Of a stretch of DNA of 64,000 bases, positions 3,841 to 23,503 are shown in pieces (within the stretch, counting starts at the first letter, position 1; each line of letters opens with the position of its first letter). Source of the DNA: Spirochaetales bacterium (GTDB taxonomy: Bacteria; Spirochaetota; Spirochaetia; JABEVK01); contig JBAXAI010000009.1 of NCBI GenBank assembly GCA_037142615.1, positions 58,460-122,459 on the forward strand, read 5' to 3'. Under the pieces are notes generated by a model. The model had not been told where the DNA came from. It searched no databases and worked only from the letters and a program-made list of their open reading frames with translations. Both the position numbers and the translations under genes were made by a program.

Positions 3841-4811
3841 GGTGTTCCCCCTTGCAAAACGGCGCCGTGCGAAGCGCGGAGAACGGGTTTGAGCGCTACC
3901 AGTCGGGTCTGACTCCAGCCGGGGTGAGCCAACATCTTGAGCAGGATGTCGGCCGCCTGACGGCCCCACTCGGCGCGAGGCACCTGAACCGTCGTCAGCG
4001 CCGGGTGAAGAAACTCGGCCACCTGGATGTCGTCAAACCCGGTAACACCGATGTCCTGACCCAGCTCGACCTTCTCGGCCGTGAACACGCGGTAGATGCC
4101 CAAAGCCGTCTCGTCGTTGGCGCACACAACAAGCTTTGGCCGAAGCTTCAGGCCCAGAATCTGGCGGGCAACCCGGTGGCCACCGTCTTCGGTGAAGTCT
4201 CCCCCAAGAACCCGGAGGTCCTTTCCGAACCGGAGGTGCATGGCGGCCAACCGCTCTTCGGCGTCGTGGGAGTGTTCGGGTCCCCCGACGTAAACGAGGT
4301 CTTCCCTCGGCGGTGAGCCCAGACCATCGAGCAACTGGTTGAGCCCACCCGCGTTGTCGAGCACGCAACTGGAAAGTCCTGCGGCCTTCAGGTTGCGGTC
4401 CATTGTTACCAAGGGAAGTCCCGCGGCGGCGGCCTCAAGGATCTTCTGGTCGGGGATGGCGGCGTCGAGAATGACGCCGGCGTCGAGGCGGCGTCCGCGC
4501 AGGTAATCGGTCCGTGGCGATCGGAAGCAGACAATCAGGTCGTACCCGGCAACATCCAGTTGGTGCCGCACGCCCGCGAGCACATCGTGGTAGAACGGCC
4601 CGGCGAGGTCGTTCACGAAGAAGCCCACCGTGCGCGTTTCGCGGATCTTGAGGCTACGGGCGATTTCGTGCGGTCGGTAGTCGAGTTCGCGGGCAATGGA
4701 AAGGATCCGGTTGCGGGTCGTAGGAGCCACCCGGCTGTCGCCGTTGAGAGCAAGAGAGGTCGTCGAAACAGAAACCCCTGCGCGAAGGGCAATTTCCTTC
4801 AGTCCGGCCAT
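3837..4811 (-). CDS. LacI family transcriptional regulator
   Basis: N-terminal LKEIALRAGVSVSTTSLALN HTH; C-terminal VTGFDD...PALTTV. Confidence 0.93.
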   Translation of the reverse strand: MAGLKEIALRAGVSVSTTSLALNGDSRVAPTTRNRILSIARELDYRPHEIARSLKIRETRTVGFFVNDLAGPFYHDVLAGVRHQLDVAGYDLIVCFRSPRTDYLRGRRLDAGVILDAAIPDQKILEAAAAGLPLVTMDRNLKAAGLSSCVLDNAGGLNQLLDGLGSPPREDLVYVGGPEHSHDAEERLAAMHLRFGKDLRVLGGDFTEDGGHRVARQILGLKLRPKLVVCANDETALGIYRVFTAEKVELGQDIGVTGFDDIQVAEFLHPALTTVQVPRAEWGRQAADILLKMLAHPGWSQTRLVALKPVLRASHGAVLQGGTP

Positions 4812-4918: not shown

Positions 4919-6835
4919 TTAGACGGTGAAGCCCTTCACCCGTTCCTGCAGGCGGAACGCGGCTTCGGCGTTGGCTTGGGCCCCCATGGCGACGGCTGCC
5001 ATGGCCTTGGTCAACTGCTGGGTCTTGAGGGATTGCGACGTGACAGCCTGCTCGATGCGACGGGTGGCTTGAATGATTTCGGCCATCGCCCGCGAGGCGT
5101 CGACCGAATGGCCCTTCTGCTCCTGGGTGAGGTCGCGGATCACGTTCATCGCCTCAACCAACCCTTGTGTCGAGCCGAGAACCTGATCGGTGCCGGTCTG
5201 CTGTTCGGTCATGGTCAAGGCGATCGTACGCAGCAAAGTCGAGGTCTCTTCGGTCCGGCGGGCGATTTCAGTAAAAGCGTCGCCGGCCTGGCCCGCCAGT
5301 TGGCCCCCGGTTTGGATCTTGCGGTCCATGTCCTGGATATGCGTGCGGATCTCGCGAGCGTTGCGCGCGCTGGTCTCGGCCAGATTGCGAACCTCGTCTG
5401 CGACCACGGCAAAGCCGCTCCCCGAGTCCCCTGCGTGGGCGGCTTCGATGGCGGCATTCATTGCCAGAAGATTGGTCTGCGCGGCAATTTTGGCAATCAA
5501 GCCCACAATCTCGTTGACGCTGCGCGAAGCGTCTTGAATCTCGCCCATCGAGCGCGACATGTTGCCCATGGCGGTCGCACCGGCCTGGGTGATCTCGGCC
5601 AAACCTTGACCCACGATATCGGCCTTTCGGGTCATCTCGCCTACCGAAGTGATGTTTCCGGCCATTTGGGCGATCGCCGTCGAGCTCTCGCCCACCAAGC
5701 GCACCTGTTCCTCAACCCGCGTCTCGACGATGAGAGTCGATTCCCCGACCTTCGCCAGCAACTGCTCCGCTTGCCGGATGGCGCTCACCTGCTCTTCGAC
5801 GGACTGCTGGACGTTGCCCTGCGAGCCCGCGAGGCTGATGGTGGTCAGCGAGGCGTCGGCCGACTCGGCCTGGACCTGAGTCGACGACCCAGAGACTTCG
5901 GTGGCGCTGGCCTTCACCTCGGCCACCAAAGGCTGAAGGTTAGAAAGAAACTGATTGATGTGGCCCGTCAGGCGGCCGATTTCGTCATAAAAAACGACGG
6001 GAACCCGAACCGTGAGGTCCGAAGACCCGGTGGCGAGTTCGGTGATCTTCGTATCGAGCCGCCTGAGTTGACGGCGGAGGTTATCGACCACGACAAAAAT
6101 GAGAAAAACGGTCCAGATGACGAGGAAAGCCGCAAGACCGCCCATCTGCAACACGACGCCCAATTCGCTGGAAGCCAGCGCCTGATCGCCCGAAACGGTG
6201 GCCCCTGCCAGAGCATCGGCGGCCAACTGAGAGTAGTAGTGACTCACTTCGCGGTAGAAACCGAGGGTTGCCACCGACATGAGAATACTTCCCAAGAACA
6301 CCGACCCGAGGACAGTCCACAGCAGCCGGCTGGGCAAACTGAGGTCGCGGATCTGGGGCGGCAGTTCCCTCACTCCCAGCTTCTCACGAAGGCGGACCAA
6401 GACGCTGTCCGACATGGCCAACCCTTGAAGAATCCCCATCCCACCGGTAGCTACACCCAACAGCACGCTGACCCACAGATCCAGCGCGGCCATTTTTCCA
6501 CCAGCCAGAAGGTCGAGCAACAGGGTTTGACCGGTGGTCCCCAACACAAAAACCAACACGTTCGACACCACAAAAAAACGCGGAAGACCCGCGAGGACCT
6601 TCCAGACCTCGGTCCTTTCCAACTGGGGTTTGCGCAGAGCCCTCACACGCCACCGCATCACCACGGCCCCGCCGATCGCCATCACAAGAGCCCAGGGGAT
6701 GGTGACAAACAGGGTGCTGAGCAAGGTGGTGAACGCCCTGTGGAAGAACAAGGCCTCAAAAAGCAGGATGAAGCCTTGACCCAAAAGAGTCAGGCCGAGG
6801 AAGACGAGGGCAAGAAGGTTGGCAGGGTTTCCCAT
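4919..6835 (-). CDS. Methyl-accepting chemotaxis protein
   Basis: Multi-TM N-terminus, HAMP (DEIGRL), signalling hairpin [17 protein letters not shown]; start at MGNPANLL is inferred. Confidence 0.9.
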
Positions 6836-6879
6836 GATGGTCCATTGTCGTGCACCGCGTTCGGGTTTACAATACGGGC

Positions 6880-7299
6880 ATGTCACTGACGGTTTCCCGC
6901 ACCAATAATCAAGAAGCGGTGATGGCAATGGTGCGCCAGTTGCAGTCGCGCGATGCAACGGTCCGCAACCACGAAGCCGCCCATATCGGGGCCGGCGGCG
7001 GGGTGATCACCGGTGGTGCCCACTACAGCTACCAAAAGGGCCCCGACGGCCGCAACTACGCCATCGGTGGTGAGGTCGGCATCGATTCGAGCCCGGTTTC
7101 GGGGAATCCGCAGGCCACTCTCAGCAAAATGGCTTTGGTGAAGGCGGCCGCTTTGGCGCCTTCGGAACCCAGCGCGGCCGATCAGTCGGTCGCCGCCTCC
7201 GCCACCCAGATCGAGGCACAGGCGCGGGTCGAGGCCTACCGCAAGGGCCAGCAAACCAGTGATTCAGCACGGGGAACCAACGTGGATCTGACGGTATGA
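6880..7299 (+). CDS. SprA-related family protein
   Basis: [12 protein letters not shown]...[19 protein letters not shown]...[16 protein letters not shown] motif string. Confidence 0.8.
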
Positions 7300-8117
7300 A
7301 ACCCCTTCCCTGCGTCCGCACGCTCGCTGGGTGGGCCGTTGTCATGGTGCTGACGCTCGCGACCCAGCCTCTCGCGGCGCAGTCCGAGTCCGTGCCGGTC
7401 GTGAAGGCGCTTTTGGTCGACGGTGGCCCCTTTCTCCAGGGCAACCGCACCATCGAACCGATGGTCGCTGGCAAAAAAGTCACCGTCTCGTCGTTCTGGA
7501 TGGCCGAGACCGAGACGACGCAGCGCCAGTACAAAGAGGTCACCGGGAGCGATCCGAGCTGGTTCCACAACGCCGAGAACCCTGTCGAGAAAGTCTCGTG
7601 GTACGAAGCCATCGCGTTTTGCAACCTGCTGTCGGTCCGCGACGGCCTCGAGCCTGCCTACAGTGTCGAAGGGACCAAGGTCACGTGGAACCACGAGGCC
7701 CAAGGTTGGCGGCTTCCCACCGAGGCCGAGTTCGAGTTTGCGGCGCGCGGGGGTCTGCAAGGTCACGACTACGCGTTCCCGGGGAGCGGCGCCGCCGACG
7801 AAGTGGGCTGGAGCTTCAGCAATTCCGGCAAGCAAACCCGCCCGGTCAAATCCCTAAAGCCCAACGAGTTGAATCTGTACGGGCTGGCCGGAAACGTGTG
7901 GGAGTGGTGTTGGGATTGGTACACCTTCGATCGGTCGTCGTTGCCGGAAGTGAACCCGCAGGGGCCGTTGGTCGGCTCCGACAAGGTGAACCGGGGCGGC
8001 GGTTGGAACGACGACTTCGTCGATTCCTTCCGCCCGTACTTCCGCGCCGATGACGGTCCCGACTCGCGCGACAGCGACCTCGGGTTTCGCGTTGTCCGCA
8101 ACTCGCTCGGCTTGTAA
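7296..8117 (+). CDS. Formylglycine-generating enzyme (SUMF1/FGE-sulfatase) domain secreted protein
   Basis: Signal peptide; RLPTEAEFEFAARGG, GNVWEWCWDWY, RGGGW, LGFRVVR. Confidence 0.88.
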   Translation: MKPLPCVRTLAGWAVVMVLTLATQPLAAQSESVPVVKALLVDGGPFLQGNRTIEPMVAGKKVTVSSFWMAETETTQRQYKEVTGSDPSWFHNAENPVEKVSWYEAIAFCNLLSVRDGLEPAYSVEGTKVTWNHEAQGWRLPTEAEFEFAARGGLQGHDYAFPGSGAADEVGWSFSNSGKQTRPVKSLKPNELNLYGLAGNVWEWCWDWYTFDRSSLPEVNPQGPLVGSDKVNRGGGWNDDFVDSFRPYFRADDGPDSRDSDLGFRVVRNSLGL

Positions 8118-8130
8118 CTCCACCCCTGGG

Positions 8131-9270
8131 CTAAAAAGTCGTGAGCGGCAACAGGATGAACTGGAGCGTCACGCCCGCCTCGTTTACCCTGGCCAAGGTC
8201 GCCGTCTCGCCAAGCTTGCCGCGGGCGACATCGTGCTGGGCCGCGTCGGCGAAGACGACCACCTGCCTGGGGTTGGCCGCTTTGCTACCCGCAGGCGCCA
8301 CCACGTCGAGCGCGGCCGAAAGGGCCTCGATCGCCGCTTCGGGCACATCGCCTCCGGCATCGGCCGACGCCCCGAGCAGTTCACTCTTCCAAACCGAGCG
8401 GTCCGAGGTCAGCTTGACGGTCTTGGTCAAGTACAGTTCCTGGTAGTCGCGGTAGAACACGAAGCCGAGCCGCAGCCCGGCCAGGCCTTCGGTGAGGGCT
8501 TCGATCTGCGGCGCCAAGGTTTCCCGGACAGCGGCAAGGTCCTGCTTCATGCTCTTGGTGGTGTCGATGGCCCACACCAGGTCGACGTTGTCGCGCAAGG
8601 TGGCCGTCAACCGCTTCACGCCGTCGGCGGGATCGAGGGCCTTTTCGGTCGGGCCCAGGCGCCGGAACAGGTCCTCGGCGCCTTTGACGTACTTGCCATG
8701 GTCGGGAGGCAGTTCGGCCACGACTGTCAGCGTGGAAAGCTCAAAGGCGTTGTCTTTGTACGCGCCGGTGTAGTCCTCGTAGGGTTTGGCGAACGTACGG
8801 ATCGAGAACCACACCTTGCCACCGGCCTTGGCCAACTCCTGCGACACGTTGAGCTTGCCATAGCGGGCCCCGGGCGCCGTGGTGCTGCCGTACTCGATCA
8901 GCGTCGGGATCACGACTTCGAACGAGGCGCCAAAGCGGGGGTCTGCCACCACCGTCGATGACACGAGAAACGAGTTGGGCGCCTTGAGCGGCACGCCGTT
9001 CAGCAGACGTTTCTCGTTCGCCCCGGAAGGGTAGTCACCCACGGACTTCCAGGAATACGTGGCCAGCTTGTGGTCGGGCAGTTCGTAGGATTCGACCAAC
9101 ATCACCGACGAAAGACCGGTCGTCTGCCGGATGATCAGGTGGAACCCGTCGTCACGGCTCTCGATGCGCACGTCGCCGGCCTTGAGCGTCAGCCCTTCGG
9201 GCACCTGAGCCCACACCGCCGAAGCCGTGAACAGCGCGAGGAACACACTGCGGAACCAAGAAGCTTTCAT
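8131..9270 (-). CDS. Secreted vWA-domain protein
   Basis: Signal peptide; MIDAS-like DTTKSM, FYRDY, GGDVPEA, DAAQH. Confidence 0.75.
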   Translation of the reverse strand: MKASWFRSVFLALFTASAVWAQVPEGLTLKAGDVRIESRDDGFHLIIRQTTGLSSVMLVESYELPDHKLATYSWKSVGDYPSGANEKRLLNGVPLKAPNSFLVSSTVVADPRFGASFEVVIPTLIEYGSTTAPGARYGKLNVSQELAKAGGKVWFSIRTFAKPYEDYTGAYKDNAFELSTLTVVAELPPDHGKYVKGAEDLFRRLGPTEKALDPADGVKRLTATLRDNVDLVWAIDTTKSMKQDLAAVRETLAPQIEALTEGLAGLRLGFVFYRDYQELYLTKTVKLTSDRSVWKSELLGASADAGGDVPEAAIEALSAALDVVAPAGSKAANPRQVVVFADAAQHDVARGKLGETATLARVNEAGVTLQFILLPLTTF

Positions 9271-9327: not shown

Positions 9328-12300
9328 TCAGCGCGTTCGCATGACGGCGCCGCCGAAGGTAAAGCCGCCGCCAAAAGCGCACAGCCCGACCACCTTGCCG
9401 GGCACCAACTCGGGGGTCAGCTCGAAAAGTGCCAACGGAATCGAGTTCGACGACGTGTTTCCAAAGTGCCCGATGTTCGAGAAGATCCTGTCGGCCGTCA
9501 ATTTTGTCTTTTGGCGCACGGCGTTCAAGATGCGCTGGTTGGCCTGGTGGGCCACAACGAGGTCGAGGTCGTGCGGCGCCATACCGCTGGCGTGGCAAGC
9601 TTGTTCCAGCAGGAGCACCATGTGCTTCACGGCTTCCAGGTACACCTTGGGACCGTCCATGCTGATGAACTCTTCGGCTGAAAGCGGCACCTTGAGGCTG
9701 CTCCCGTCCTCGCCACGGCCCGAAAGTACCGGGCGGTCAAACTCGGCCAGGATTTCGTGGGCCCTGTCGGCACCGACCACCAGGCTGGCGGTGGCGGCAT
9801 CACCAAAGACGGGGGCCGTCTGCACGTCGGTGTGGTCGGTTCGTCGGCTGAGCACCTCGGTGGTAATCACCAAAACGCGCCCGTTGGGGTTGTAAGCCAA
9901 ATGGTCCCACGCCGCCTGCAGGCTGTACAGGTAGCCGGAACAGGCCGCGTTGATGTCGTTGACCTGAATGAGCGGTTCCACACTTCGGCCCCTGGTCAAT
10001 TCGGCCAGAACCAGACAAGCCATCGAGGGCGTGAAACTGGCGGGGGTCCCCGTGGTGCAAAAAACCGCTGTCAGGTCCTCGGGCGCGAGTTTGTGGGCGT
10101 CGAGGAGTTCGCGGCTGGCGCGGACCGCCAGGCTGAGCGCTGTTTCGTCGTCGGTGGCCCACTGGCGCGTATGAATGCCGATGCGCTTCACGATGCCGGC
10201 GGGGGTCCAGTCGGGGCAAAGGGCCGCGATCTCTTCGTTGGTCACGGTACGCGAACCGGGGGCGATGCGGATGCCGGCCACACCAACCAGCGGTGCGCGG
10301 GCGCTGCGGTGCGTCGGCTGGGACTGCGCCCCGGTGTCGAGCCAAACGATGTGCGGGGTCCCGGGGTTCTCGAGCGTGATCGGCTTCTTTGAAACGCGGG
10401 CCGAGCCGGTGGCCACTTTGAGCAAGGGTGTGCCCACCTTCACCTGCTCACCGACGGGGACCAAGACCTCTGCGAGCGTACCTTCCAGCGGGCTCGAAAG
10501 GTCGAACGCGGCCTTGTCGGCCTCAAGCTCGGCCAGCTTCAGGCCCGGCGTGAGTTTCTGGCCCGGCTTTACCAACCATTCCAGCACGGTCACCGACTCA
10601 TCCGAGGGACTGGAACCGACGGCCTCGACGAAGGCAAAGCCGGCCTCGATCTTCAGGTCGAGCTCCCAGGTCAGTTCGCCGCCAAACAGGTCGACGGCGG
10701 TGGTGAGGATTTTTTTGTACGACGGGAGCACTTCGAGCTGGTTGCCGAAGTTGCACGGCACGTAGGTGTCGGGGCGTGCCACACGCCGTATCTGCACCGG
10801 CACCCCGGCCTTTTCGGCGACGGTGGCAGCGATTTCACTCGCCATCGACGCCGAGTGAGAATCTTCCTGCGCGATGATCAGTCGGCCGGTCTTGCGCACC
10901 GACTCGAGCACCAGCGGCTCGTCCCAGGGTGAGAGCGAGCGCAAGTCGATCACGTCGCAGGGCTTGCCGGCGGCGGCCAGCGCGTCGGCAGCCTTGAGGC
11001 ACAGGTTCAGCGTGTTGCCCCAGCCCACCAGCGTCAACTGATCGCCATGCCGGTGCAAGCGCCCGCGGCCGATGGGAACCAAGTGCTGGCGGATGTCTTT
11101 GCTGGTGGCCTGCGTGCGGTCGTTGAGGCAGCTTTTCGGGTAAAAGAACACTGTCGGGCGCTTGGACTCGAAAGCGGCGTTGAGCAGGCCGGCCGCGTCG
11201 CCGGCGGTGGCTGGCAAAAAGACGTCGAGGCCGGGCGTGTGCGCGGCGATCGATTCCATGCTGCTGGCGTGGAACGGCCCCAACCCTGGCTTGTAGCCAC
11301 CGCAACTGACCATCAGGATCATCGGCGCCTTCCAACCACCGTCGGTGCGCCAGTGCATCGAGCCCATTTCGGCGAAAATCTGGTTGTAGGCGATGGCAAA
11401 GAAGTCGGCAAACTGCAAAAAACCGACGGGGTGACGACCGGCCAGGGCCTGCCCCACGCTGACGCCCACAATGGTTGACTCGGCCAGCGGCGAGTTCTTC
11501 ACGCGGCCGGGGAAGGCTTCGCTGAGTCCCTTGGTGACGCCGAACACGTCGCCTTTGGGGTCTTCGATGTCTTCGCCAAACAGGCTAACCGCCGGATCGG
11601 TTTCCAAGCGGTGGCGGAGCACTTCGCGCAGGGCTTCAAGCATCGTGATCTGCTCGCCGCCCTCGACACCGGTGTTCTCCTCGGCCGGGTTGGTCAGGTG
11701 CGACGGCAAGTCGGCCTTAGCGGTATAGATTGGTTCGGGCTCGGCGCTGTCTTGGGCCCGAAGGGAGTCGGCCTGCACCTCGTCCTTCAGGCGCGCGCGC
11801 AGCTCGGCAAGCCGGTCCAGTGCGACACCGTTGTGCTCCAGCCAAGCCTCGAGGCGGGGCAGCGGGTCATCGCGGCGCCGGGTCTCTTCGATCTCTTCGA
11901 GCGAGCGGTAGCTTCGGTGGTCGTCGGCGTTGGTGTGGCTGTTGAGCCGGCTGACCTGAAAGATCACGATGGCAGGGCCCCGATGCTCGCGGACCCCTTC
12001 AACGGCCCGGCCGAAAGTCTCGTAGCTTGCCACGGGGTCGCGACCATCGACGCGCAAGAGCGGAAGCCCGTAGAACTCCTGGGCGTCGCCGCTGGGCCGA
12101 CTGTAGAACGTCTGGCCCTTGGTCTTGGTGCTGATGGCCCACGTATTGTCTTCCACCACAAAGAGTACTGGAAGATGCTCGCGCACAGCGTGGGCGATGG
12201 CCTCCAGCACCTCACCTTGCTGGGTGGTGCCGTCACCCAACGCGCAAACCACCAGCGGTCGGCTGGGCTGCTCTTTGATCACGGAGGCGACGCCGACAGC

Positions 12301-12663
12301 CTGCAACGCGTTGTTGCCCACGGGCCCGACCAGACTGAGCACTTTGAGCGCTGGGTCGCTGAGGTGCGCCGACATCTGGCGGCCCCGGCTGTGGCTGCCG
12401 TCCTTGCAAAACAAGCTCAGAAAGAACTGGTAAGGGCTGATACCGCGGTCGATCAGGAGCGCCTTGTCGCGGTAATGGCAGTGCAGGTAGTCGTCGGCAG
12501 TCAAATGGGGGTTCAGGAAGGCGATGTTTTCGTGGCCGGTTCCCGAAACATGGAAGAACGCTTCGCCGCGCTGGGTGTAGTCTTGCTCCAGGAGGTCGAC
12601 CTCCCGAGACTTGACGATGCTTTCATAAATAGAAAGGAATCGCTCCACGGTGGGTTGTTGCAT
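9328..12663 (-). CDS. Fusion protein: 2-oxoacid dehydrogenase E1 alpha + E1 beta + lipoyl domain + 3-oxoacyl-ACP synthase III (FabH)
   Basis: TPP motif GDGTTQQG...EDN, E1beta SPLAESTIVG/QFADF, lipoyl LEADKA, FabH NAACSG/HQAN/GNTSS in a single 1111-aa frame. Confidence 0.9.
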   Translation of the reverse strand: MQQPTVERFLSIYESIVKSREVDLLEQDYTQRGEAFFHVSGTGHENIAFLNPHLTADDYLHCHYRDKALLIDRGISPYQFFLSLFCKDGSHSRGRQMSAHLSDPALKVLSLVGPVGNNALQAVGVASVIKEQPSRPLVVCALGDGTTQQGEVLEAIAHAVREHLPVLFVVEDNTWAISTKTKGQTFYSRPSGDAQEFYGLPLLRVDGRDPVASYETFGRAVEGVREHRGPAIVIFQVSRLNSHTNADDHRSYRSLEEIEETRRRDDPLPRLEAWLEHNGVALDRLAELRARLKDEVQADSLRAQDSAEPEPIYTAKADLPSHLTNPAEENTGVEGGEQITMLEALREVLRHRLETDPAVSLFGEDIEDPKGDVFGVTKGLSEAFPGRVKNSPLAESTIVGVSVGQALAGRHPVGFLQFADFFAIAYNQIFAEMGSMHWRTDGGWKAPMILMVSCGGYKPGLGPFHASSMESIAAHTPGLDVFLPATAGDAAGLLNAAFESKRPTVFFYPKSCLNDRTQATSKDIRQHLVPIGRGRLHRHGDQLTLVGWGNTLNLCLKAADALAAAGKPCDVIDLRSLSPWDEPLVLESVRKTGRLIIAQEDSHSASMASEIAATVAEKAGVPVQIRRVARPDTYVPCNFGNQLEVLPSYKKILTTAVDLFGGELTWELDLKIEAGFAFVEAVGSSPSDESVTVLEWLVKPGQKLTPGLKLAELEADKAAFDLSSPLEGTLAEVLVPVGEQVKVGTPLLKVATGSARVSKKPITLENPGTPHIVWLDTGAQSQPTHRSARAPLVGVAGIRIAPGSRTVTNEEIAALCPDWTPAGIVKRIGIHTRQWATDDETALSLAVRASRELLDAHKLAPEDLTAVFCTTGTPASFTPSMACLVLAELTRGRSVEPLIQVNDINAACSGYLYSLQAAWDHLAYNPNGRVLVITTEVLSRRTDHTDVQTAPVFGDAATASLVVGADRAHEILAEFDRPVLSGRGEDGSSLKVPLSAEEFISMDGPKVYLEAVKHMVLLLEQACHASGMAPHDLDLVVAHQANQRILNAVRQKTKLTADRIFSNIGHFGNTSSNSIPLALFELTPELVPGKVVGLCAFGGGFTFGGAVMRTR

Positions 12664-12708
12664 GACGCAATAACGGTACGTTGGACACTCTAAAAAGTCA
12701 ACAAACGC

Positions 12709-13029
12709 TTACGTCTGCAGGGGCTGGATGAACAATCTTTCACCGTCGTAGAAGACCACTGCCTTGGGAGGACAGCCGAGCAGTTTCCAGTGGGAAGCGC
12801 CAAGCTGAAGGGTCTGATGGGGGCACTCGTTGAGAATATCGACCTCGGCTGGGCTACGAGTTCCGGACTCGCCCTTGAGGTAGTCCTGGACACTGATTTC
12901 GCCACAAAGCTGGACTTCGTGCTTCACGCGCATCAGGCCGAGGTCAAAGCCGTCGTTGGGATGAAGGATCAGTTTCCCCTTGGGGATGTGCTGACTCGCC
13001 GAAACCTGCAGGGTCAACGTCTTCTTCAT
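12709..13029 (-). CDS. Hypothetical protein (106 aa)
   Basis: ORF with GGAGG RBS, co-oriented between the lipid kinase gene and the E1-FabH fusion. Confidence 0.65.
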   Translation of the reverse strand: MKKTLTLQVSASQHIPKGKLILHPNDGFDLGLMRVKHEVQLCGEISVQDYLKGESGTRSPAEVDILNECPHQTLQLGASHWKLLGCPPKAVVFYDGERLFIQPLQT

Positions 13030-13039
13030 GGGCCGCCTC

Positions 13040-14074
13040 CTAATGACTACGTGACAACGTCCTCAGACCGCTGGCCACGCGTTTCATCGTCAGGGGAAAA
13101 TCCCCTGGTTCCAGCCAGAACTCCTCGCCATCGAGTTGCAGAGGAAGCCGCGCCGACTGGTGAACCGACAGCGAATCGCCCCGGGCAAACTCGATGCCGG
13201 GCAAGCCCCGGTGCGTCCCCCGGTAAATGGGTTCGCGGTAGCTGAGTTTGGTCAGCAGGTTCACCCGGTGGGCGAGCACGAGGTTGTCTTCGTCGGGCAA
13301 AATATGCTTTCCGGCCCCGTAGGTCCGGTGCCCGGAGGTCCCGAAGGCCACCAGCAGCAATTGGTCTTTCCACGCCGCCACCGGCTTGCCGTCTTGGGTC
13401 AGCTCGACGTCCATGACCACCATCTTGGTGGCCCACTCATAGAACAGCGTCGCCGCGTCGACCATGAGGCTGTACGTGTTGCCTGGCATCACTTTGCGGA
13501 AGCGATTGGTGAGAGACACCACCCAGGCGTCGAGACCGACACTGCCGATGTTGAAGCTGTGGTGCAGACCCAACCGGGGCGCGCGTACCTCGAGCATGTC
13601 GAGCGGGCGCGGTTCAAAACCGGGGGCCTCGTCGCCCGAGAGCACGTCGAGACAAGTGTTCCAGTCGTCGGCGTCGGCAGCGTCGTTTCCTGTCCCCAAG
13701 GGCAGCCGGAAAAACAGGAGTTTGGCCTTTTCCTCGTCGGTCATGCCCAGGGCAGAAATCAAGGCGGCACGCGAGGTGCCGTCGCCGCCAGCCACGATGA
13801 CAAGCTGAAGATCGGGACCCACGGGGTGCGCCACCATGGGTGGCAGTTCAGGGCTGGTCAGACGGATGCTGACGGTCACCTTTCGCCCCGGGGTTGCGAC
13901 AACAGGCCGTTCTACCAAGCCCTGAATGAGGCGGCTGAGGCGACCTTTGTGGCGAAAGGCTCCAGCGTGCGGGTTCACCAGCAGGTCGATGTGCAACGAC
14001 CGGTCGGGAAAAAGGCGGGTGGCGCGTAACCAGGCGCTGAACAGGGCACTGAAAGTGGCGACTGAAATTTCCAT
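13040..14074 (-). CDS. Diacylglycerol/lipid kinase family protein
   Basis: LVNPHAG, AGGDGT, LPLGTGND, QLDGE motifs; start MEISVATF is inferred. Confidence 0.82.
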   Translation of the reverse strand: MEISVATFSALFSAWLRATRLFPDRSLHIDLLVNPHAGAFRHKGRLSRLIQGLVERPVVATPGRKVTVSIRLTSPELPPMVAHPVGPDLQLVIVAGGDGTSRAALISALGMTDEEKAKLLFFRLPLGTGNDAADADDWNTCLDVLSGDEAPGFEPRPLDMLEVRAPRLGLHHSFNIGSVGLDAWVVSLTNRFRKVMPGNTYSLMVDAATLFYEWATKMVVMDVELTQDGKPVAAWKDQLLLVAFGTSGHRTYGAGKHILPDEDNLVLAHRVNLLTKLSYREPIYRGTHRGLPGIEFARGDSLSVHQSARLPLQLDGEEFWLEPGDFPLTMKRVASGLRTLSRSH

Positions 14075-14094
14075 CACCACGAATTGTCGGCCCT

Positions 14095-15444
14095 CTAGCC
14101 CGAAATTGCCAATCCGTATTCTTTGATCTTGTTGAACATGGTCCGCCGGGTGATGCCAAGCTCTTCGGCGGCCCTGGTCTGGTTGCCTTCCCACTTGAGC
14201 AGAGTTTCCTGGATGGCTTTGCGCTCCAGTTCCCTCAGGGTGCCACCGGCCACCGGTTCTGAGTCGGTCGCCTCGCCGGCTTCCAACAGGGGAAGTTCCA
14301 GGTCGGCCTCGGTGACGACTTCGCCTTCGGCAAAAATCAGCGCCCTTTCCAGCAGGTTTTCGAGCTCGCGGATGTTCCCCGGAAAGCTGTAGGCCCGCAG
14401 CCTCGCCATGGCGGCCCCGGTCAAACCCGAAACCTTCTTGCCCATGGCTTTGGACAACTTATCGAGCAAACGCGAGCACAGCCACGGCAGATCGTCGAGC
14501 CGGTCGCGCAGGGGCGGCAGCAAAATCGGCACCACGTTGAGGCGGTAGTACAGGTCCTCGCGGAAGCGGCCGGCCTTCACCTCGTCGGCGAGGTTGCGGT
14601 TGGTCGCGGCCAGAATGCGCGATTCCACCGGGATCGACACCGTGCCGCCGATGCGCTGGATCTTGCGTTCCTGCAGCACCCGCAGAAGCTTCACCTGCAG
14701 GGGCAACGGCATTTCACCGATCTCATCGAGGAACAGTGTGCCGCCCGAAGCGAGCTCGAAAAGGCCATTCTTGCGTTTGTCGGCGCCGGTGAACGAACCC
14801 TTTTCAAAACCAAACAGCTCGCTTTCCAAAAGGTTCTCGGGGATGCCACCGACATTGATGGCCAAGAAGGGCCCGCTGGCAAAGGCCGACTCGGTGTGGA
14901 TGCGCCGCGCCAGCACTTCTTTGCCCGTGCCGCTTTCGCCGGTGATCAGGATCAGCGAGGTGGTCGGTGCCGCCTTTTTGACCAGCGCGTCGATGCGCAC
15001 CCAGGCCGAGGACTGCGGACCAAGTCCACCGGCGGTGCGGCTGTCGGCTGGCTGCACTTGCACGCTGCGGGCAATTCGGTGGTCGCGGTGGGCTTCGAGG
15101 GCTTGCCTCAACCGGTAGTCGAGCTCGTCGGGATCAAAGGGTTTGGTGATGTAATCGCGGGCTCCGCGCTTCATGGCTTCGACCGCGTCGGCGATTTCGC
15201 CGTGGGCCGAGATCATCACAAAGGGCACATCAGGCCCTTCGGCTCGGCACCAGCTCAGCAGTTCCAGCCCATCCATGCCGGGCATTTTGAGGTCGGCAAT
15301 GACGCCCGCGTAGGCCTCTTCTTGCAAACGGCGCTGGGCAGCCAGACCGTTTTCGGCGGCCTCGGCCTCCCAACCCGACGAGCGGAGCAGTTTGACCAGC
15401 GCTTCGCGGATGTTCTTCTCGTCGTCGGCGACCAGGATTTTCAC
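14095..15444 (-). CDS. Sigma-54-dependent response regulator (NtrC/AtoC/ZraR type)
   Basis: REC (DD, DLKMP), GESGTGKE, GSFTGA, FREDLYYRL, Fis HTH. Confidence 0.93.
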   Translation of the reverse strand: MKILVADDEKNIREALVKLLRSSGWEAEAAENGLAAQRRLQEEAYAGVIADLKMPGMDGLELLSWCRAEGPDVPFVMISAHGEIADAVEAMKRGARDYITKPFDPDELDYRLRQALEAHRDHRIARSVQVQPADSRTAGGLGPQSSAWVRIDALVKKAAPTTSLILITGESGTGKEVLARRIHTESAFASGPFLAINVGGIPENLLESELFGFEKGSFTGADKRKNGLFELASGGTLFLDEIGEMPLPLQVKLLRVLQERKIQRIGGTVSIPVESRILAATNRNLADEVKAGRFREDLYYRLNVVPILLPPLRDRLDDLPWLCSRLLDKLSKAMGKKVSGLTGAAMARLRAYSFPGNIRELENLLERALIFAEGEVVTEADLELPLLEAGEATDSEPVAGGTLRELERKAIQETLLKWEGNQTRAAEELGITRRTMFNKIKEYGLAISG

Positions 15445-16709
15445 GGTGTTCCCTCCACAGGATGGCTTTCAGAGACCTTGGCCTCGGGCAGGTCGATGTA
15501 CACCCTGGCACCGCCTTCGGGCCGGTTCTCCCACTTGAGGGCTCCGCCGGCGGCTTTCACAAAACTCTCGGTGATCGAAAGCCCGATTCCGGAACCTTGG
15601 ATCTTGGTGGTGAAGAACGGCGTCGACGCCTCCTTGAGGCTTGCGCCGGTAAAGCCAGCACCCGAGTCGAGCACCTCGAAGCGTACCCAACCGGCCTTGG
15701 GATGGCTCAGGCGCACTTCCGGCCGGGCGTCGGGGCCGCTTTCGACAGCGTTCTTGAGCAGGTTTTCGAGCACCGAGCGAAGCCGGTGCGGGTCAAAACT
15801 GACGCGCCAACTCTGGCCGGGTTCGCGGTTCCAACGAATCGGCTCGGCAAAGCGTTCGAGCAGAGAGGCCAGAGCCTCGCCCAGGTCGACCACCACCGGC
15901 TGGCCCGACGGATCCTTGAGGAACTCGCGCACCCGGCTCACCAAGTGATTGATCCGTTGGGTTTCCTCTTCAATGAGAATGAGTTCTTGCGGCGGTTCGG
16001 CCCCCGCGCTGCGTTTGAGCAGGGCCGTCTGAAGCAAAATGGCCGCCAGCGGGTTCTTGATTTCGTGTGAAAGCGTTCGCGCCGCCTCGGCAAACTGCAG
16101 CAGCTCGCGGTTGTTGCTGATCGCCGCCTGATACTGGCGGCTACGGTTCCACAACCACCCGATGAAGACCAGAAAGGCCGCCCAAACCAGCGGCCCCAGC
16201 ACGGCGGCAGCCGTCCACGCCACCCCTTGCGACAGGAGCGAGTCTTCCTTGAGGCGCAGGAACAGGGCGGCACCGCCCAATCTTCGGGGCTGATGGTCGG
16301 CCTCGCCTTCGTCGTCGGTGACCATCATCGGGCCGGGCCGGTCGAGGCGTTTCAGAAAATCCAGCACTCCGAGTCCGGCTTGCCGGAACACCCGGCCATC
16401 GCGTCCAGCCCCACCATTCATCAGGGGCAAAACAAGCTCTGCGGGTGCTTCACCGTACTGGACGAGGGCTTCACCCGTGCGGGTGTACAGGCCGAAACCC
16501 ACAATGTCAGCGGGCAGAGTCGGGGGCAATTGCCCCAGGAGCGTCACCCGCACCAGTTCGTCGCCCAGCCGCTCGGTTTGATACTGAAAGACCTCGTCGA
16601 GGTGCGACTGCTGCTCGTGGACGAACAGCAACCACAACACCGATCCGGTCAAAAAGAGTGTCAGGAGGACGACGAGGGGCATGTGCTTCAGAAGCTTCAT
16701 ATTCCGCAT
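15441..16709 (-). CDS. Sensor histidine kinase
   Basis: Two TM segments; H-box SHEIKNPL, N-box NLLKNA, DSGAG, GSGIGL. Confidence 0.92.
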   Translation of the reverse strand: MRNMKLLKHMPLVVLLTLFLTGSVLWLLFVHEQQSHLDEVFQYQTERLGDELVRVTLLGQLPPTLPADIVGFGLYTRTGEALVQYGEAPAELVLPLMNGGAGRDGRVFRQAGLGVLDFLKRLDRPGPMMVTDDEGEADHQPRRLGGAALFLRLKEDSLLSQGVAWTAAAVLGPLVWAAFLVFIGWLWNRSRQYQAAISNNRELLQFAEAARTLSHEIKNPLAAILLQTALLKRSAGAEPPQELILIEEETQRINHLVSRVREFLKDPSGQPVVVDLGEALASLLERFAEPIRWNREPGQSWRVSFDPHRLRSVLENLLKNAVESGPDARPEVRLSHPKAGWVRFEVLDSGAGFTGASLKEASTPFFTTKIQGSGIGLSITESFVKAAGGALKWENRPEGGARVYIDLPEAKVSESHPVEGTP

Positions 16710-17299: not shown

Positions 17300-17758
17300 T
17301 CAATCGTCCCCACCGCGCCGGGCGAAGGCCTGCAGGGTGATCACCTTGCCGCCTATGGTGGCAGTCAGGGGTCGGTAGCTCGGCTTCACGTCCTGGCCCT
17401 TCACCGTGGTCAGAACGCCCTCAAAAGCCACCTTGTCGCCGGTCTTCACGCCGAGTTGCTGCACCTGATTCGGGAACAGAGTCAGGGTGTAGACCACGCT
17501 CCCCACCTTGAGGGTGGCTGCATTGTTGGCTCCCAGCGTGATAACGCCGGTCAGCGCCTTGTACTCCTGCAGCACGCTCACGCCGGCCTTCCAGGTCACC
17601 TGCGGACCACCAAAACCCCCGGCGCCAGGACCCCCAGGGCCAAAGCCACCCCCGCCATTACCGCCTCCGCCACCACCCCCGAAAGGATCAGGACCGTTTT
17701 GGGCAAACAGCGCGGCCGACCCCGCGAGCAACAGGACTGTCAATAATCGTCTCTTCAT
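17300..17758 (-). CDS. Secreted Gly-rich hypothetical protein
   Basis: Start MKRRLLTVLLLAGSAALFA after RBS GGAGG; poly-Gly segment; core LTGVIT...GVKTGDKVAFEG. Confidence 0.7.
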   Translation of the reverse strand: MKRRLLTVLLLAGSAALFAQNGPDPFGGGGGGGNGGGGFGPGGPGAGGFGGPQVTWKAGVSVLQEYKALTGVITLGANNAATLKVGSVVYTLTLFPNQVQQLGVKTGDKVAFEGVLTTVKGQDVKPSYRPLTATIGGKVITLQAFARRGGDD

Positions 17759-17806
17759 TTCTTCCTCCATGCTGGGGCTCGTTGTGGCCCGACACATCCG
17801 TAGTTG

Positions 17807-17822
17807 AGCAAACGCCGTGCCA
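17807..17822 (-). promoter_or_regulatory. Sigma-54 (-24/-12) promoter
   Basis: Minus strand TGGCACGGCGTTTGCT matches TGGCAC-N5-TTGCW, ~50 bp upstream of the 17758 start. Confidence 0.85.
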
Positions 17823-17870
17823 GCTATTGGCAGTTCGAGCGAGTCCGACAGACCATTTTCGGCGAAGGTT

Positions 17871-17919
17871 CTGTGAAATTTTTTCCGCCAGTGGGCCCTG
17901 ACGGGAAAAAACTTCCCGT
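17871..17919. promoter_or_regulatory. Putative tandem upstream activator sites for the sigma-54 regulator
   Basis: ACGGGAA-AAAAC-TTCCCGT perfect 7-bp inverted repeat (17901-17919) and a related site (minus strand GGCGGAAAAAATTTCACAG, 17871-17889). Confidence 0.55.
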
Positions 17920-17937
17920 TTATGATAACACAAGCAG

Positions 17938-18534
17938 GTGCGAGTTCCCCTCCTGCCCGCCCGGGCCGAATTGACGGTGTCGAGGTCACGCTTTCTCGCC
18001 CTCATCGAAGGCATCGCTTCGGCCGAAGAGGCCCGAGCTCACTTGAAGGCTCTCAAAGCCCAGCACGCCGATGCCAGCCATGTAGTCCACGCCTTTGTGC
18101 TCGGCGAGGGCAACTCCCGCAATTCCGGCTGCAGCGACGACGGCGAACCCCCGGGTACCGCTGGGAGGCCCGTGCTCGATGTGTTGGCCGGCAGCGGAGG
18201 TTCGAATGCTTTTGTCGCCGTGGTCCGCTGGTTCGGCGGCACCAAACTGGGCACAGGGGGGCTGGTGAAGGCTTACTCCGAGGCGACGCGGGCCGTGCTG
18301 GCCGTCACAGCCTGGACCACGCTGCGCGACCTGGTCTCGCTGGGCCTGGAACTCCCGTATGAGAGCCTGCGCCCGCTGAAAACGCTGTTGGAAGAGGCCG
18401 AAGCCCAGGATGTCGTCGAGGTGTTCGCCGAAACCGTCACCGTCACCGCACGGGTGCCCCGGGAACACGTTGAAACGCTGCAGGCCCGCACCCGTGACCT
18501 GACGCGAGGGCTAGAGTTCCGCAACCTCGGGTAG
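17938..18534 (+). CDS. yigZ: YigZ/IMPACT family protein
   Basis: SRFLA, ASHVVHAF, SDDGEPPGTAGRP, VVRWFGGTKLGTGGLVKAY. Confidence 0.9.
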   Translation: MRVPLLPARAELTVSRSRFLALIEGIASAEEARAHLKALKAQHADASHVVHAFVLGEGNSRNSGCSDDGEPPGTAGRPVLDVLAGSGGSNAFVAVVRWFGGTKLGTGGLVKAYSEATRAVLAVTAWTTLRDLVSLGLELPYESLRPLKTLLEEAEAQDVVEVFAETVTVTARVPREHVETLQARTRDLTRGLEFRNLG

Positions 18535-23250: not shown

Positions 23251-23503
23251 AACGGTTGTCGATGAGCTTGACCAACGCATCCACGGCCGCAGCCTCATCG
23301 GAGCCGCTGGCAGTAATCTTGACAACCGTATTGCATAGGACGCCCAGAGTGATCAGACCCATGATCGATTTGGCATTGATCTTCTCATTTTCTTTCTCGA
23401 TGAAGATTTGCGAACTGAACTTGTTCGCGAGAGTGACGATCATCCCTGCCGGTCTGGCATGGATACCCGCCCTGTTCTTCACCGTCACGTCCTTCTCAAC
23501 CAT
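23240..23503 (-). CDS. ptsH: Phosphocarrier protein HPr
   Basis: GIHARPA (His15), NAKSIMG (Ser46). Confidence 0.95.
   Translation of the reverse strand: MVEKDVTVKNRAGIHARPAGMIVTLANKFSSQIFIEKENEKINAKSIMGLITLGVLCNTVVKITASGSDEAAAVDALVKLIDNRFEE

Follow-up and report, generated by a model that had tools for sequence, protein, structure and literature searches.

A single-chain E1alpha-E1beta-lipoyl-FabH protein: a candidate CoA-independent enzyme for the start of fatty-acid synthesis

The window, a stretch of 64 000 nucleotides from a Spirochaetales bacterium, contains a gene for a single protein, P0001, in which two E1 modules, a lipoyl domain and a FabH domain follow each other (Table 1). All motifs listed for it in the initial annotation are present in the translation: GDG at residues 143–145 with N173, EADKA at 714–718, NAACSG at 905–910, HQAN at 1039–1042 and GNTSS at 1068–1072. 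Biotin_lipoyl scores 50.3 bits, and both FabH domains are above the Pfam cut-off (ACP_syn_III 57.4 bits, ACP_syn_III_C 83.7 bits). A Pfam search of the 1111-residue translation gave no match to the 2-oxoacid_dh E2 core (PF00198), in agreement with the earlier statement that the protein is devoid of one, and at E <= 0.01 no match to a peripheral-subunit (E3/E1) binding domain. The AF2 model (mean pLDDT 88.6) consists of three well-folded modules and low-confidence tethers, with pLDDT below 50 at residues 776–789. The lipoyl domain is built of beta strands, and the linker behind it forms a further strand at residues 769–774 with a pLDDT of about 64. Among the 115 relatives of our main family set, which are 54–83% identical to P0001, the linker motif is conserved (G768 and P770 each in 115, E765 in 113), while the length of the lipoyl-FabH linker varies from 51 to 105 residues across the family.

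Table 1. Position of the fusion gene, its modules and its neighbours in the window.
Feature	Residues	Position	Strand	Basis or remark
Whole gene P0001, single-chain E1alpha-E1beta-lipoyl-FabH	1111 aa	9328–12663	minus	ATG at 12663; stop 9328–9330
E1alpha module	18–311	11731–12612	minus	Pfam E1_dh, E 3.5e-40; TPP motif G143-D/E-G145...N173; His243 in HTNADD
E1beta module	338–644	10732–11652	minus	Pfam Transket_pyr 338–513 and Transketolase_C 532–644; His465 in PGLGPFH
Lipoyl domain	676–751	10411–10638	minus	Pfam Biotin_lipoyl 690–749, 2.1e-13; K717 (codon 10513–10515) in EADKA
Linker motif K760-P-x-T-x-E-x-P-G768-x-P770-x-I772, C-terminal to lipoyl domain	760–772	10348–10386	minus	Family conservation
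Flexible tether, lipoyl module to FabH	776–789	10297–10338	minus	pLDDT <50
FabH (KAS III) domain	793–1111	9331–10287	minus	Pfam ACP_syn_III 903–972 and ACP_syn_III_C 1023–1109
FabH triad codons	C908; H1039; N1069	9940–9942; 9547–9549; 9457–9459	minus	Triad alignment to E. coli FabH
Upstream context: 106-aa ORF and DAGK/YegS-type lipid kinase		12709–14194	minus	Pfam
Downstream context: VWA-domain protein		8131–9270	minus	Conserved in 1 of 55 related loci

The fusion is found far beyond this contig. Among the matches listed, 119 of 120 relatives (54–83% identity) have the E1, lipoyl and both FabH Pfam domains, the sole exception being P0102 with 823 residues. Full-length intact fusion ORFs occur at 74 distinct loci in genomes, among which are complete chromosomes and isolates. 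One contig of 3103 nt from a metagenome run of another study (X2) spans positions 9780–12800, across all three domain junctions, and contigs of runs X3 and X4 bridge the lipoyl/FabH and E1beta/lipoyl junctions. The X2 contig carries a 1-nt deletion at 12507, which is not in X3, X4 and X8. The concern that the fusion might be an assembly or frameshift artefact is thereby settled, as independent contigs bridge every domain junction and the relatives are intact. A frameshift accounts for some of the short 'lipoyl-FabH' entries in databases, such as locus L064 with its overlapping ORFs 5161–7050 and 6881–8476.

The taxonomic spread of the architecture, left to be checked in the initial annotation, is considerable. 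The family comprises about 39 clusters at 50% identity and, according to the sequence-record labels, at least nine phyla; it is thus not rare. Within the phylum of the present species, the fusion was detected in six of 301 sampled genomes, and together with the scattered occurrences in other phyla this gives a patchy, transfer-like distribution. The only labels that members bear in databases are 'beta-ketoacyl-ACP synthase 3', 'transketolase' or '2-oxoisovalerate dehydrogenase E1'. For residue counts, the main family set was complemented by a wider set of 75 ORFs, 43–83% identical, from genome loci of nine phyla (sequence-record labels).

P0001 has the features of a heterotetrameric alpha/beta-type E1 (E1_dh, Transket_pyr and Transketolase_C, the TPP/Mg motif and both active-site histidines) and also the N-terminal lipoyl domain with a DKA lysine that is one mark of an E2. 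The E1 residues G143, G145, N173, H243 and H465 are each present in 115 of 115 relatives, residue 144 of the TPP motif being Asp in 86 and Glu in 29. The lipoyl motif (E714, A715, D716, K717, A718) is equally invariant, and the lipoyl-lysine K717 is found in 75 of 75 proteins of the wider set. The best solved structures for the E1 part are 1um9_B (4.7e-55, beta) and 1um9_A (7.9e-36), of the Thermus branched-chain type, with 190.7 bits for beta vs 182.5 and 177.4 for pyruvate types. No substrate class was obtained from curated equivalogs, as none of the 25 NCBIfam matches listed reaches its cut-off (PDH E1beta, 198.2 vs 454). To the three other E1 sets of the same genome, the E1 part is only 26–34% identical.

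C908, H1039 and N1069 of the FabH domain align with C112, H244 and N274 of E. coli FabH. Each is present in 115 of 115 relatives; in the wider set Cys and His are found in 75 of 75 and Asn in 73. R1044 is located at the position of E. coli Arg249, which we take to be the basic ACP-docking residue, and is Arg in all 115 relatives and in 73 of the wider set, which has Lys in the other two. On this evidence, each of the three modules appears to be fit for catalysis in the 115 relatives. The domain is matched by 42 solved FabH-type sequences at E <= 1e-10 (best 2ebd, 5.9e-41), and its likeness to E. coli FabH (1HND/1HNH with CoA; 109 bits to 1hn9) extends to the fold, the triad and Arg249. Unlike E. 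coli FabH, it remains below the NCBIfam FabH cut-offs (PRK09352, 226.3 vs 249; TIGR00747, 190.3 vs 292.1), and the position of Phe87 is occupied by Thr in 113 of the 115 fused proteins, a residue that leaves the acyl channel open in mycobacterial FabH.

A further difference concerns the site for the CoA adenine, which in E. coli FabH–CoA structures is stacked between Trp32 and Arg151, as a passage of PMC4606726 describes. P0001 has G823 and V947 at these positions. Trp at the former occurs in none of the 115 fused proteins, none of the wider 75 and two of 40 distant representatives, and Arg at the latter in none of the three groups. Instead, the 115 proteins have mostly Asp (93), Glu (9), Lys (6) or Gly (5) at the Trp32 position and Pro (59), Tyr (18), Phe (11) or Ala (8) at the Arg151 position. 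The 16 stand-alone FabHs that we compared, nine of which come from fusion-carrying genomes (two of this genome and seven of four others), have kept Trp in 16 cases and Arg in 14. A near-invariant Trp819 lies one helix turn ahead of the Trp32 position, placed by the alignments either at the E. coli Thr28 position or beside it, and Arg at the pantetheine-contacting R36 position is retained in 99 of 115. Judged from these alignments, the CoA site of the fused FabH is remodelled rather than simply deleted.

By its sequence, the E1-lipoyl module of P0001 belongs to a wider group of single-chain E1-lipoyl-X proteins. E1 modules 56–59% identical to that of P0001 precede a canonical E2 core (P0267, 59% identity over the E1 part), a thioesterase (P0272) or, in P0269, an unknown domain, and more distant ones precede an E2 core (seven representatives), an E2 core and ACP (P0331) or an E2 core-ACP-KS...C-A arrangement (P0302). 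P0267, P0304, P0308, P0311, P0314 and P0323, which are unnamed in databases, share the fused E1-lipoyl module, P0267 falling into the same or the sister E1 clade; they have the canonical 2-oxoacid_dh acyltransferase, also present in P0342, at the C-terminus, whereas P0001 has FabH there. P0250, with 1942 residues and 48% identity over residues 7–1109, has, C-terminal to FabH, a KR domain and an ACP with the LGIDSM serine motif, an extension that fits a 3-oxoacyl-ACP as the predicted product. P0250 and several of the X-variants are single clusters from one contig each. In the E1 tree (FastTree, midpoint root) the FabH-type rows are in one clade of 48 rows, 39 of them of FabH type, and E2 cores are found in the sister clade. 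At least seven changes of the FabH label are required on this tree, partly because of probable fragment rows. As X may be an E2 core, a thioesterase or FabH(-KR-ACP), FabH occupies the position of the acyl acceptor.

We lean towards reading P0001 as a self-contained enzyme that would convert a 2-oxoacid to a 3-oxoacyl-ACP, the acyl group being handed over without CoA or an E2 core. The E1alpha-E1beta module, expected to form an alpha2beta2 E1-like dimer, would decarboxylate the 2-oxoacid on TPP and reductively acylate its own K717, as the intact motifs suggest. The lipoyl domain would then swing on its tethers to FabH, which has a dimer-forming fold. In the step that would be new, the S-acyl-dihydrolipoyl arm would enter the remodelled tunnel and pass its acyl group to Cys908 by thioester exchange, so that CoA and the E2 core would be unneeded. 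His1039 and Asn1069 would decarboxylate malonyl-ACP docked at Arg1044, and the condensation would yield a 3-oxoacyl-ACP for type II fatty-acid synthesis; we infer this step because the residues are invariant and one relative has KR and ACP in cis. Finally, the dihydrolipoyl arm would be re-oxidised by a lipoamide dehydrogenase, for which the genome has genes at other places. The fused enzyme would work beside an ordinary acyl-CoA-using FabH and not replace it.

That FabH stands in for the E2 core and is loaded with the acyl group by the lipoyl arm had been proposed in the initial annotation. The proposal gains comparative support from the invariant catalytic residues, from the replaced CoA-adenine contacts next to a kept ACP-docking Arg, and from the E2 core or thioesterase at the same C-terminal position of relatives. 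The hand-off itself would probably be CoA-free. The lipoyl-lysine arm is shorter than the phosphopantetheine arm, and that it reaches into the FabH tunnel is therefore an assumption. The missing match to an E3-binding domain, the retained Trp819 and R36-position Arg, and the Trp at the Trp32 position of two of the 40 distant representatives also speak against our main reading.

The FabH-like domain might be a substitute for the E2 core and nothing else, acting as a transacylase that passes the acyl group from the lipoyl arm via Cys908 to CoA or holo-ACP, with acyl-CoA or acyl-ACP as product and no condensation. We consider this unlikely. FabH enzymes do have an acyl-CoA:ACP transacylase side activity, and transferases or hydrolases (E2 core, thioesterase) hold the C-terminal place in related chains, but the His-Asn pair, which is needed for malonyl decarboxylation and not for simple transacylation, is invariant (115 of 115; 73–75 of 75 in the wider set). 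Moreover, the ACP-docking Arg is kept in all 115 while the CoA adenine contacts are lost, and P0250 adds a KR, which requires a 3-oxo product.

The genome encodes two E2 cores and two lipoamide dehydrogenases above the curated cut-off, in both cases on contigs C3 and C11, and none on contig C9, to which the window belongs. Further E1 genes are located on C3, C11 and C47, a stand-alone FabH on C3 and a second FabH-like gene on C1; two genes are of the BPL/LplA/LipB family. All the stand-alone genes that were to be looked for (fabH, E2 and lpdA) are thus present. The observation that the window holds no E2 or E3 gene is correct, but it carries no weight because this genome and five of five other complete genomes with the fusion hold a stand-alone FabH (about 330–350 residues) and several E2 cores (at least three matches). 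For the same reason, the fused enzyme is dispensable for initiation, a further point against our main reading.

The E2 cores and E3 of this genome and of the five others would permit a conventional pathway, in which E1-lipoyl feeds a separate E2 core, the resulting acyl-CoA is used by the fused FabH, and all that the fusion achieves is co-localisation or co-regulation of the steps. The R36-position Arg and the nearby Trp819 could still hold pantetheine or a nucleotide. This arrangement, to which we assign a lower probability than to the transacylase, is difficult to reconcile with the replacement of Trp32 and Arg151 in all 115 and 75 fused proteins and their retention in stand-alone FabHs of the same genomes. 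Furthermore, the varied contexts examined hold no linked E2 gene, P0001 has no matched peripheral-subunit-binding domain to dock on an E2/E3 assembly, and the sister proteins hold their own E2 core in cis at the same position.

Upstream of the fusion gene, the 106-residue ORF has no family match in Pfam. By tblastn it was found in one of 55 related loci and the lipid kinase in two; both are restricted to the closest relatives and probably do not belong to the system. Neighbours of the fusion are generally conserved among close kin only, no partner genes travel with it, and in other contexts aconitase, seryl-tRNA synthetase, NeuB and other housekeeping or unrelated genes are adjacent. With neighbours conserved no further than this, the chain would depend on no partners but housekeeping ACP and E3.

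The same chemistry might serve another product, that is, a specialised lipid or small polyketide-like metabolite made from an unusual (aromatic, long-chain or hydroxylated) 2-oxoacid and not bulk membrane fatty acid. The patchy, transfer-like distribution would fit, as would the module relatives in PKS/NRPS chains (P0302) or with KR-ACP (P0250), the Thr in place of Phe87 and the lipid-kinase gene upstream here and in two of the 55 loci. However, in none of the contexts examined does the gene lie in a biosynthetic cluster, the neighbours being housekeeping or unrelated genes, and of the three alternatives we rate this one lowest. An assembly or frameshift artefact or a gene in decay, to which the deletion in X2 and frameshifted entries such as that at L064 might point, is refuted for practical purposes by the intact relatives and wider loci, the contigs free of the deletion and the invariant catalytic residues.

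For the self-contained enzyme, our leading guess at the substrate is the branched-chain 2-oxoacids, from which iso and anteiso primers would arise; we hold it tentatively, at rather less than an even chance. This part of the initial proposal agrees with the Thermus branched-chain type as best solved E1 match, but that match is only slightly ahead of the PDH types. The fusion hosts include, by sequence-record labels, Marinobacter and Xenococcus, which to our knowledge are not known for branched-chain lipids, and this weakens the guess. For a cultured member of the genus to which fusion-carrying MAGs (loci L026 and L033) belong, a passage of PMC4511686 gives iso-C15:0 (11.7%), anteiso-C15:0, iso-C13:0 and iso-C14:0. 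As support for branched primers, this profile is circumstantial only.

In Bacillus, Staphylococcus and Listeria, the branched-chain 2-oxoacid dehydrogenase complex (E1alpha/E1beta, E2, E3) feeds acyl-CoA to FabH. P0001 resembles this system in its alpha/beta-type TPP E1, its lipoyl-lysine arm and a Cys-His-Asn KAS III of the kind responsible for condensing short acyl primers with malonyl-ACP. Unlike it, P0001 is one polypeptide and has no E2 core, E3-binding domain or CoA-adenine contacts; as the E2 core and these contacts are missing, the acyl-CoA intermediate is probably skipped. Actinobacterial OdhA, termed a 'two-in-one' 2-oxoglutarate dehydrogenase in PMC10415282, likewise combines a decarboxylating E1 and an acyl-transfer step in one polypeptide. 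Unlike P0001, OdhA is of E1o type with a canonical succinyltransferase core, makes succinyl-CoA and has no condensing enzyme.

Three initiation routes are named in PMC10869286: FabH with acyl-CoA, malonyl-ACP decarboxylase and FabB. In the literature searched, we found neither a description of the E1-lipoyl-FabH single-chain architecture nor a report of a lipoyl arm loading a ketosynthase cysteine directly. Should the hand-off be real, it would link 2-oxoacid dehydrogenase chemistry to fatty-acid initiation without coenzyme A, and type II fatty-acid synthesis would gain a new initiation route. The E2 core would be shown to be a replaceable module, and engineered hosts could be given a compact one-gene part for branched or unusual primers from amino-acid-derived 2-oxoacids.

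In quinocarcin/naphthyridinomycin-type pathways, glycolicacyl-ACP is made by an E1-like enzyme, a lipoyl-bearing E2-like protein and an ACP. As proposed for P0001, a lipoyl arm conveys a TPP-bound unit to a thiol-template carrier, and no CoA intermediate is involved; there, an E2-type core transfers to the NRPS/PKS ACP, whereas here the KAS III cysteine is the proposed acceptor. We see an even chance that the lipoyl arm is a true acyl carrier of a thiol-template line, with an as yet undescribed group of E1alpha-E1beta-lipoyl-X enzymes converting 2-oxoacids to lipoyl-bound acyl groups and passing these directly to interchangeable acceptors (KAS III, thioesterase, E2 core, E2 core-ACP-PKS/NRPS) and the FabH member providing a further, CoA-independent start of fatty-acid synthesis in addition to the three routes named above. 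P0331 and P0302 look like in-cis versions of the glycolicacyl-ACP system.

The gene encodes a single chain of 1111 residues (P0001, the E1alpha–E1beta–lipoyl–FabH fusion), as the initial annotation had proposed; it has an ATG start, and every motif quoted in that annotation was found in the translation. In its proposed mode of action P0001 resembles FabH coupled to a branched-chain 2-oxoacid dehydrogenase complex; it is a strict member of neither family. The Pfam scan matched neither the 2-oxoacid_dh core of E2 nor an E3-binding domain, in agreement with the earlier statement that the protein has no E2 core. Among the 25 NCBIfam matches listed, none reached its curated cut-off, the best being a FabH subfamily model (226.3 bits compared with a cut-off of 249). 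P0001 is thus placed outside every named full-length family.

Features of the fusion gene, its flanks and the source genome G000 (contigs C1, C3, C11, C47; other positions are those of the window or residues of P0001)
Feature	Position	Strand	Remark
Single ORF, 1111 aa	9328..12663	-	ATG start, translation
E1_dh	aa 18-311	-	Pfam
Transket_pyr	aa 338-513	-	Pfam
Transketolase_C	aa 532-644	-	Pfam
Biotin_lipoyl	aa 690-749	-	Pfam
Proline-rich linker motif KPxTxExPGxPxI	aa 760-772; 10348-10386	-	Short strand in AlphaFold2 model
ACP_syn_III	aa 903-972	-	Pfam
ACP_syn_III_C	aa 1023-1109	-	Pfam
VWA-domain protein	8131-9270	as fusion	Recurs in 1/55 loci
106-aa ORF, no family match	12709-13029	as fusion	Recurs in 1/55 loci
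DAGK/YegS-type lipid kinase	13040-14194	as fusion	Recurs in 2/55 loci
PDH-type operon: E1alpha, E1beta, E2, E3	C3
Stand-alone FabH, 320 aa	C3
Second set: E2, E3 and 819-aa fused E1alpha-beta	C11
E1alpha/E1beta pair, then lipoyl protein without PF00198 core	C47
FabH-like gene adjoining enoyl-reductase-like gene	C1
Two BPL/LplA/LipB-family genes	G000

The TPP motif G-(D/E)-G...N, His243 (in HTNADD), His465 (in PGLGPFH), the lipoyl-lysine K717 (in EADKA) and the FabH triad of Cys908, His1039 and Asn1069 were each found in 115 of 115 aligned relatives. In a wider set of 75 ORFs (43–83% identical), both E1 histidines, the lipoyl-lysine and the FabH Cys and His were present in all 75, the Asn in 73. 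Linkers of 33–35 residues before the lipoyl domain and 51–105 residues after it were measured across the family. AlphaFold2, run with the family alignment, gave all modules as well folded (mean pLDDT 88.6, pTM 0.67); the low-confidence stretches, residues 670–672 and 776–789, are as expected of tethers. The lipoyl–FabH linker contains a conserved motif beginning at K760 (G768 and P770 in 115/115), which may be a docking element. A complex prediction of two copies of the FabH domain with the lipoyl domain, also with the family alignment, scored 0.00 with controls that did not fold, and carries weight in neither direction.

We propose a CoA-free relay of four steps for this protein. E1 would decarboxylate a 2-oxoacid and then acylate K717; the lipoyl arm would hand the acyl group to Cys908; His1039 and Asn1069 would bring about the condensation with malonyl-ACP, itself docked at Arg1044; and the arm would be re-oxidised by a genome-encoded lipoamide dehydrogenase (E3). 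From sequence comparison we consider this relay moderately probable. The fold requirements are compatible with it: FabH is a homodimer, and the alpha–beta fused E1 should dimerise in the manner of alpha2beta2 E1s.

Searching 1.84 billion cluster representatives exhaustively, and then applying Pfam scans and domain BLAST, revealed the fused E1alpha–E1beta–lipoyl module with varied C-terminal domains. The FabH-type representatives (at least 900 residues, 50% identity clustering) extend down to about 36% identity. Among these rare variants, P0250, P0269 and P0331 each form a cluster of a single member from one contig; P0267 and P0272 have two members. P0272, P0269, P0331, P0302 and P0250 are not named in databases. 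Simple regular expressions found neither the E2 motif DH[RK]..DG nor a GxSxG in the thioesterase protein, so that the E2-core and thioesterase assignments are made at the Pfam level only.

C-terminal domains found after the fused E1–lipoyl module
Domain	Proteins	Identity
FabH	39 representatives
Canonical E2 core	P0267, P0304, P0308, P0311, P0314, P0323, P0342	P0267, 59% (E1 part)
Thioesterase	P0272	56%
Unknown 258-aa domain	P0269	58%
E2 core + ACP	P0331
E2 core-ACP-KS-methyltransferase-C-A, PKS/NRPS loading end	P0302
FabH, then KR + ACP with LGIDSM serine motif	P0250, 1942 aa

A FastTree built from the E1 parts (91 rows, midpoint root) places every one of the 39 FabH-type rows in one clade of 48 rows (support 88), the sister of which (99) carries E2 cores. 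A few C-terminal swaps are nested inside the FabH clade. This is the strongest comparative clue: the domain at the C-terminal position appears to accept the acyl group from the lipoyl arm, and in P0001 that domain is FabH. As a first alternative to the relay, the FabH domain would only transacylate, passing the acyl group to CoA or ACP. E2 cores and a thioesterase stand at the same position in other proteins; the KR–ACP extension of P0250 implies a 3-oxoacyl-ACP product. We consider a mere transacylase unlikely and retain the condensation of the proposed relay.

In E. coli FabH–CoA structures, Trp32 and Arg151 sandwich the adenine ring and Thr28 bonds the adenine (PMC4606726). The K-12 record served as the E. 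coli reference and was aligned with the fusion family. In the 115-member fused set, the Trp32 position holds Asp in 93 members, Glu in 9, Lys in 6, Gly in 5 and other residues in 2, with no Trp; the Arg151 position holds Pro (59), Tyr (18), Phe (11), Ala (8) and others, with no Arg. Trp was found at its position in 0/75 of the ORF set and 2/40 distant representatives, Arg in 0/75 and 0/40. The stand-alone FabHs (E. coli, two from G000, seven from four other fusion genomes and six database matches) kept Trp32 in 16 of 16 and Arg151 in 14 of 16, and by these two residues of the acyl-CoA site P0001 is not a FabH in the strict sense. All 115 fused domains have Arg at the R249 position, which we take to be the ACP-docking residue, and Lys or Arg at position 257. 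The Phe87 position is Thr in 113 of 115; in mycobacterial FabH the same substitution opens up the acyl channel. As a caveat, Trp819, one helical turn ahead of the Trp32 position, is nearly invariant, which indicates that the tunnel mouth was remodelled, not merely stripped. With two bulky side chains gone, the shorter lipoyl-lysine arm could reach further in.

This site bears on a second alternative, a conventional acyl-CoA FabH tethered to the E1–lipoyl unit with E2 acting in trans. E2 genes are available in the genome; both adenine contacts are changed in the fused domain, and we regard this arrangement as improbable, ranking behind the transacylase.

The source genome G000 (4.27 Mb, 96.7% complete) encodes stand-alone FabH, E2 and E3 on contigs C3 and C11. 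The initial annotation was right that the window has no E2 or E3 gene, but this is without weight given the copies on these contigs. Its proposal that FabH takes the place of the E2 core is partly supported: the catalytic residues, the donor site and the comparison of C-terminal domains speak for it, and the comparative evidence has strengthened it. A stand-alone FabH, together with three or more E2-core matches, was also present in each of the five other complete fusion-carrying genomes tested. Replacement of FabH or E2 by the fusion, considered from co-occurrence, was therefore rejected; the fusion is an addition to the ordinary enzymes.

Two other loci of G000 deserve mention. The 819-aa single-chain E1alpha-beta of the second E2/E3 operon (L061:4364-6823, minus strand) reached no NCBIfam equivalog cut-off, and this set may be a branched-chain complex. 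Directly after the E1alpha/E1beta pair on C47 lies a gene for a 363-aa protein (L062:6753-7844, plus strand) that resembles E2 models in its first 170–185 residues, over their lipoyl and linker portions. The genome-wide search gave no match to the PF00198 core in this protein, possibly a further non-canonical partner that bears a lipoyl group.

Among solved structures, the E1 part of P0001 matched best the two subunits of the branched-chain-type enzyme of Thermus thermophilus (190.7 and 127.2 bits), with pyruvate-type E1s close behind (182.5 and 177.4 bits). Salinispira pacifica makes iso- and anteiso-fatty acids and does not use amino acids (PMC4511686), and MAGs of this genus carry the fusion. 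These fatty acids are suggestive, but only suggestive, of branched primers from the fusion. As a third alternative, the same relay chemistry could serve a specialised metabolite instead of membrane lipid; P0302 joins the E1–lipoyl module to a PKS/NRPS loading end. We rate it as improbable too, last of the three.

Relatives were collected from 5.8 billion clustered proteins. Among the best 120 listed (54–83% identical, P0001 itself counted), 119 have E1, lipoyl and both FabH domains; the exception, P0102 (823 residues), is without FabH. Two scans of species-representative genomes gave 55 and 57 loci, from which 74 distinct full-length fusion ORFs were taken, complete chromosomes and isolates among them. 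Contigs from three public sequencing runs of other studies (X2, X3, X4) showed zero base differences over the gene, and one X2 contig covers 9780–12800 and with it every domain junction. The fusion is real, and the assembly or frameshift artefact that the initial annotation had named as an objection is in effect ruled out by the relatives, the ORFs and the independent contigs, its probability being next to nil.

The same contig of X2, an independent freshwater run, has a 1-nt deletion at 12507 in the E1alpha coding part that is absent from three other runs; either the contig is in error there or the variant is a rare one. When shorter proteins were sought as natural lipoyl–FabH split forms, many entries were returned, most of them on short contigs. 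P0164, the entry inspected on a long contig (L064), was rejected as such a form, being most likely a frameshift: L064:5161-8476 is a fusion copy from a long-read MAG, broken up into two ORFs that overlap in different frames. This copy explains database 'lipoyl–FabH' entries such as P0164, and the short forms should not be taken as natural split genes.

Judged by record titles, free-living Spirochaetota are the most frequent hosts of the fusion. Other hosts are Armatimonadota, Planctomycetota, Alpha-, Beta- and Gammaproteobacteria, one cyanobacterium, Sumerlaeota, Bdellovibrionota, Lentisphaerota and Syntrophobacteraceae. Cultured hosts by these titles include Marinobacter halodurans YJ-S3-2, Xenococcus sp. 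PCC 7305 and Ca. Marispirochaeta associata JC231. Within the window's phylum, sampled evenly, 6 of 301 genomes (G000 counted) had the fusion, from three families only. This patchy distribution looks like horizontal transfer.

In its logic the relay comes closest to the TPP–lipoyl–ACP route by which some NRPS pathways make glycolicacyl-ACP. Of the fusions described, actinobacterial OdhA is nearest; it keeps a canonical E2 core (PMC10415282). An E1–lipoyl–FabH protein was not found in the PMC open subset or bioRxiv full text. Transfer from a lipoyl arm to a ketosynthase cysteine would be a genuinely new step, as predicted here.

Clustering of all ORFs across loci restricted conserved neighbours to one spirochaete group. 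Ten flanking proteins were scanned at five loci; the flanks of L012, representing this group, are aconitase, NeuB and seryl-tRNA synthetase, and those of the P0250 gene are likewise unrelated. Neighbours were therefore rejected as pointers to partners or products, those of the window recurring in only one or two of 55 loci. Since no gene travels with the fusion, it must rely on housekeeping partners. A consensus scan of the window found no sigma-54 promoter ahead of the fusion gene; the window has four sites with one mismatch or none, which is within chance, and sigma-70 and terminator scans gave chance level only.

The only perfect sigma-54 consensus in the window, TGGCAC-N5-TTGC at 17807–17822 (minus strand), is inside or ahead of unannotated ORFs (17300–17989) and near two histidine-kinase/sigma-54-activator pairs (14095–16709 and 20102–23325). 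In P0368 (1196 residues), a fused E1alpha–E1beta with partial Transketolase_C is joined to CHASE2 and adenylate/guanylate cyclase domains; it may be either a chimera of the assembly or a cyclase that senses 2-oxoacids. A GH94 glycoside phosphorylase of the cellobiose/chitobiose phosphorylase type, a solute-binding protein and a LacI-type regulator adjoin one another in the window (1357–3969 and 2–1351, both minus strand) and form an ordinary sugar-use locus.
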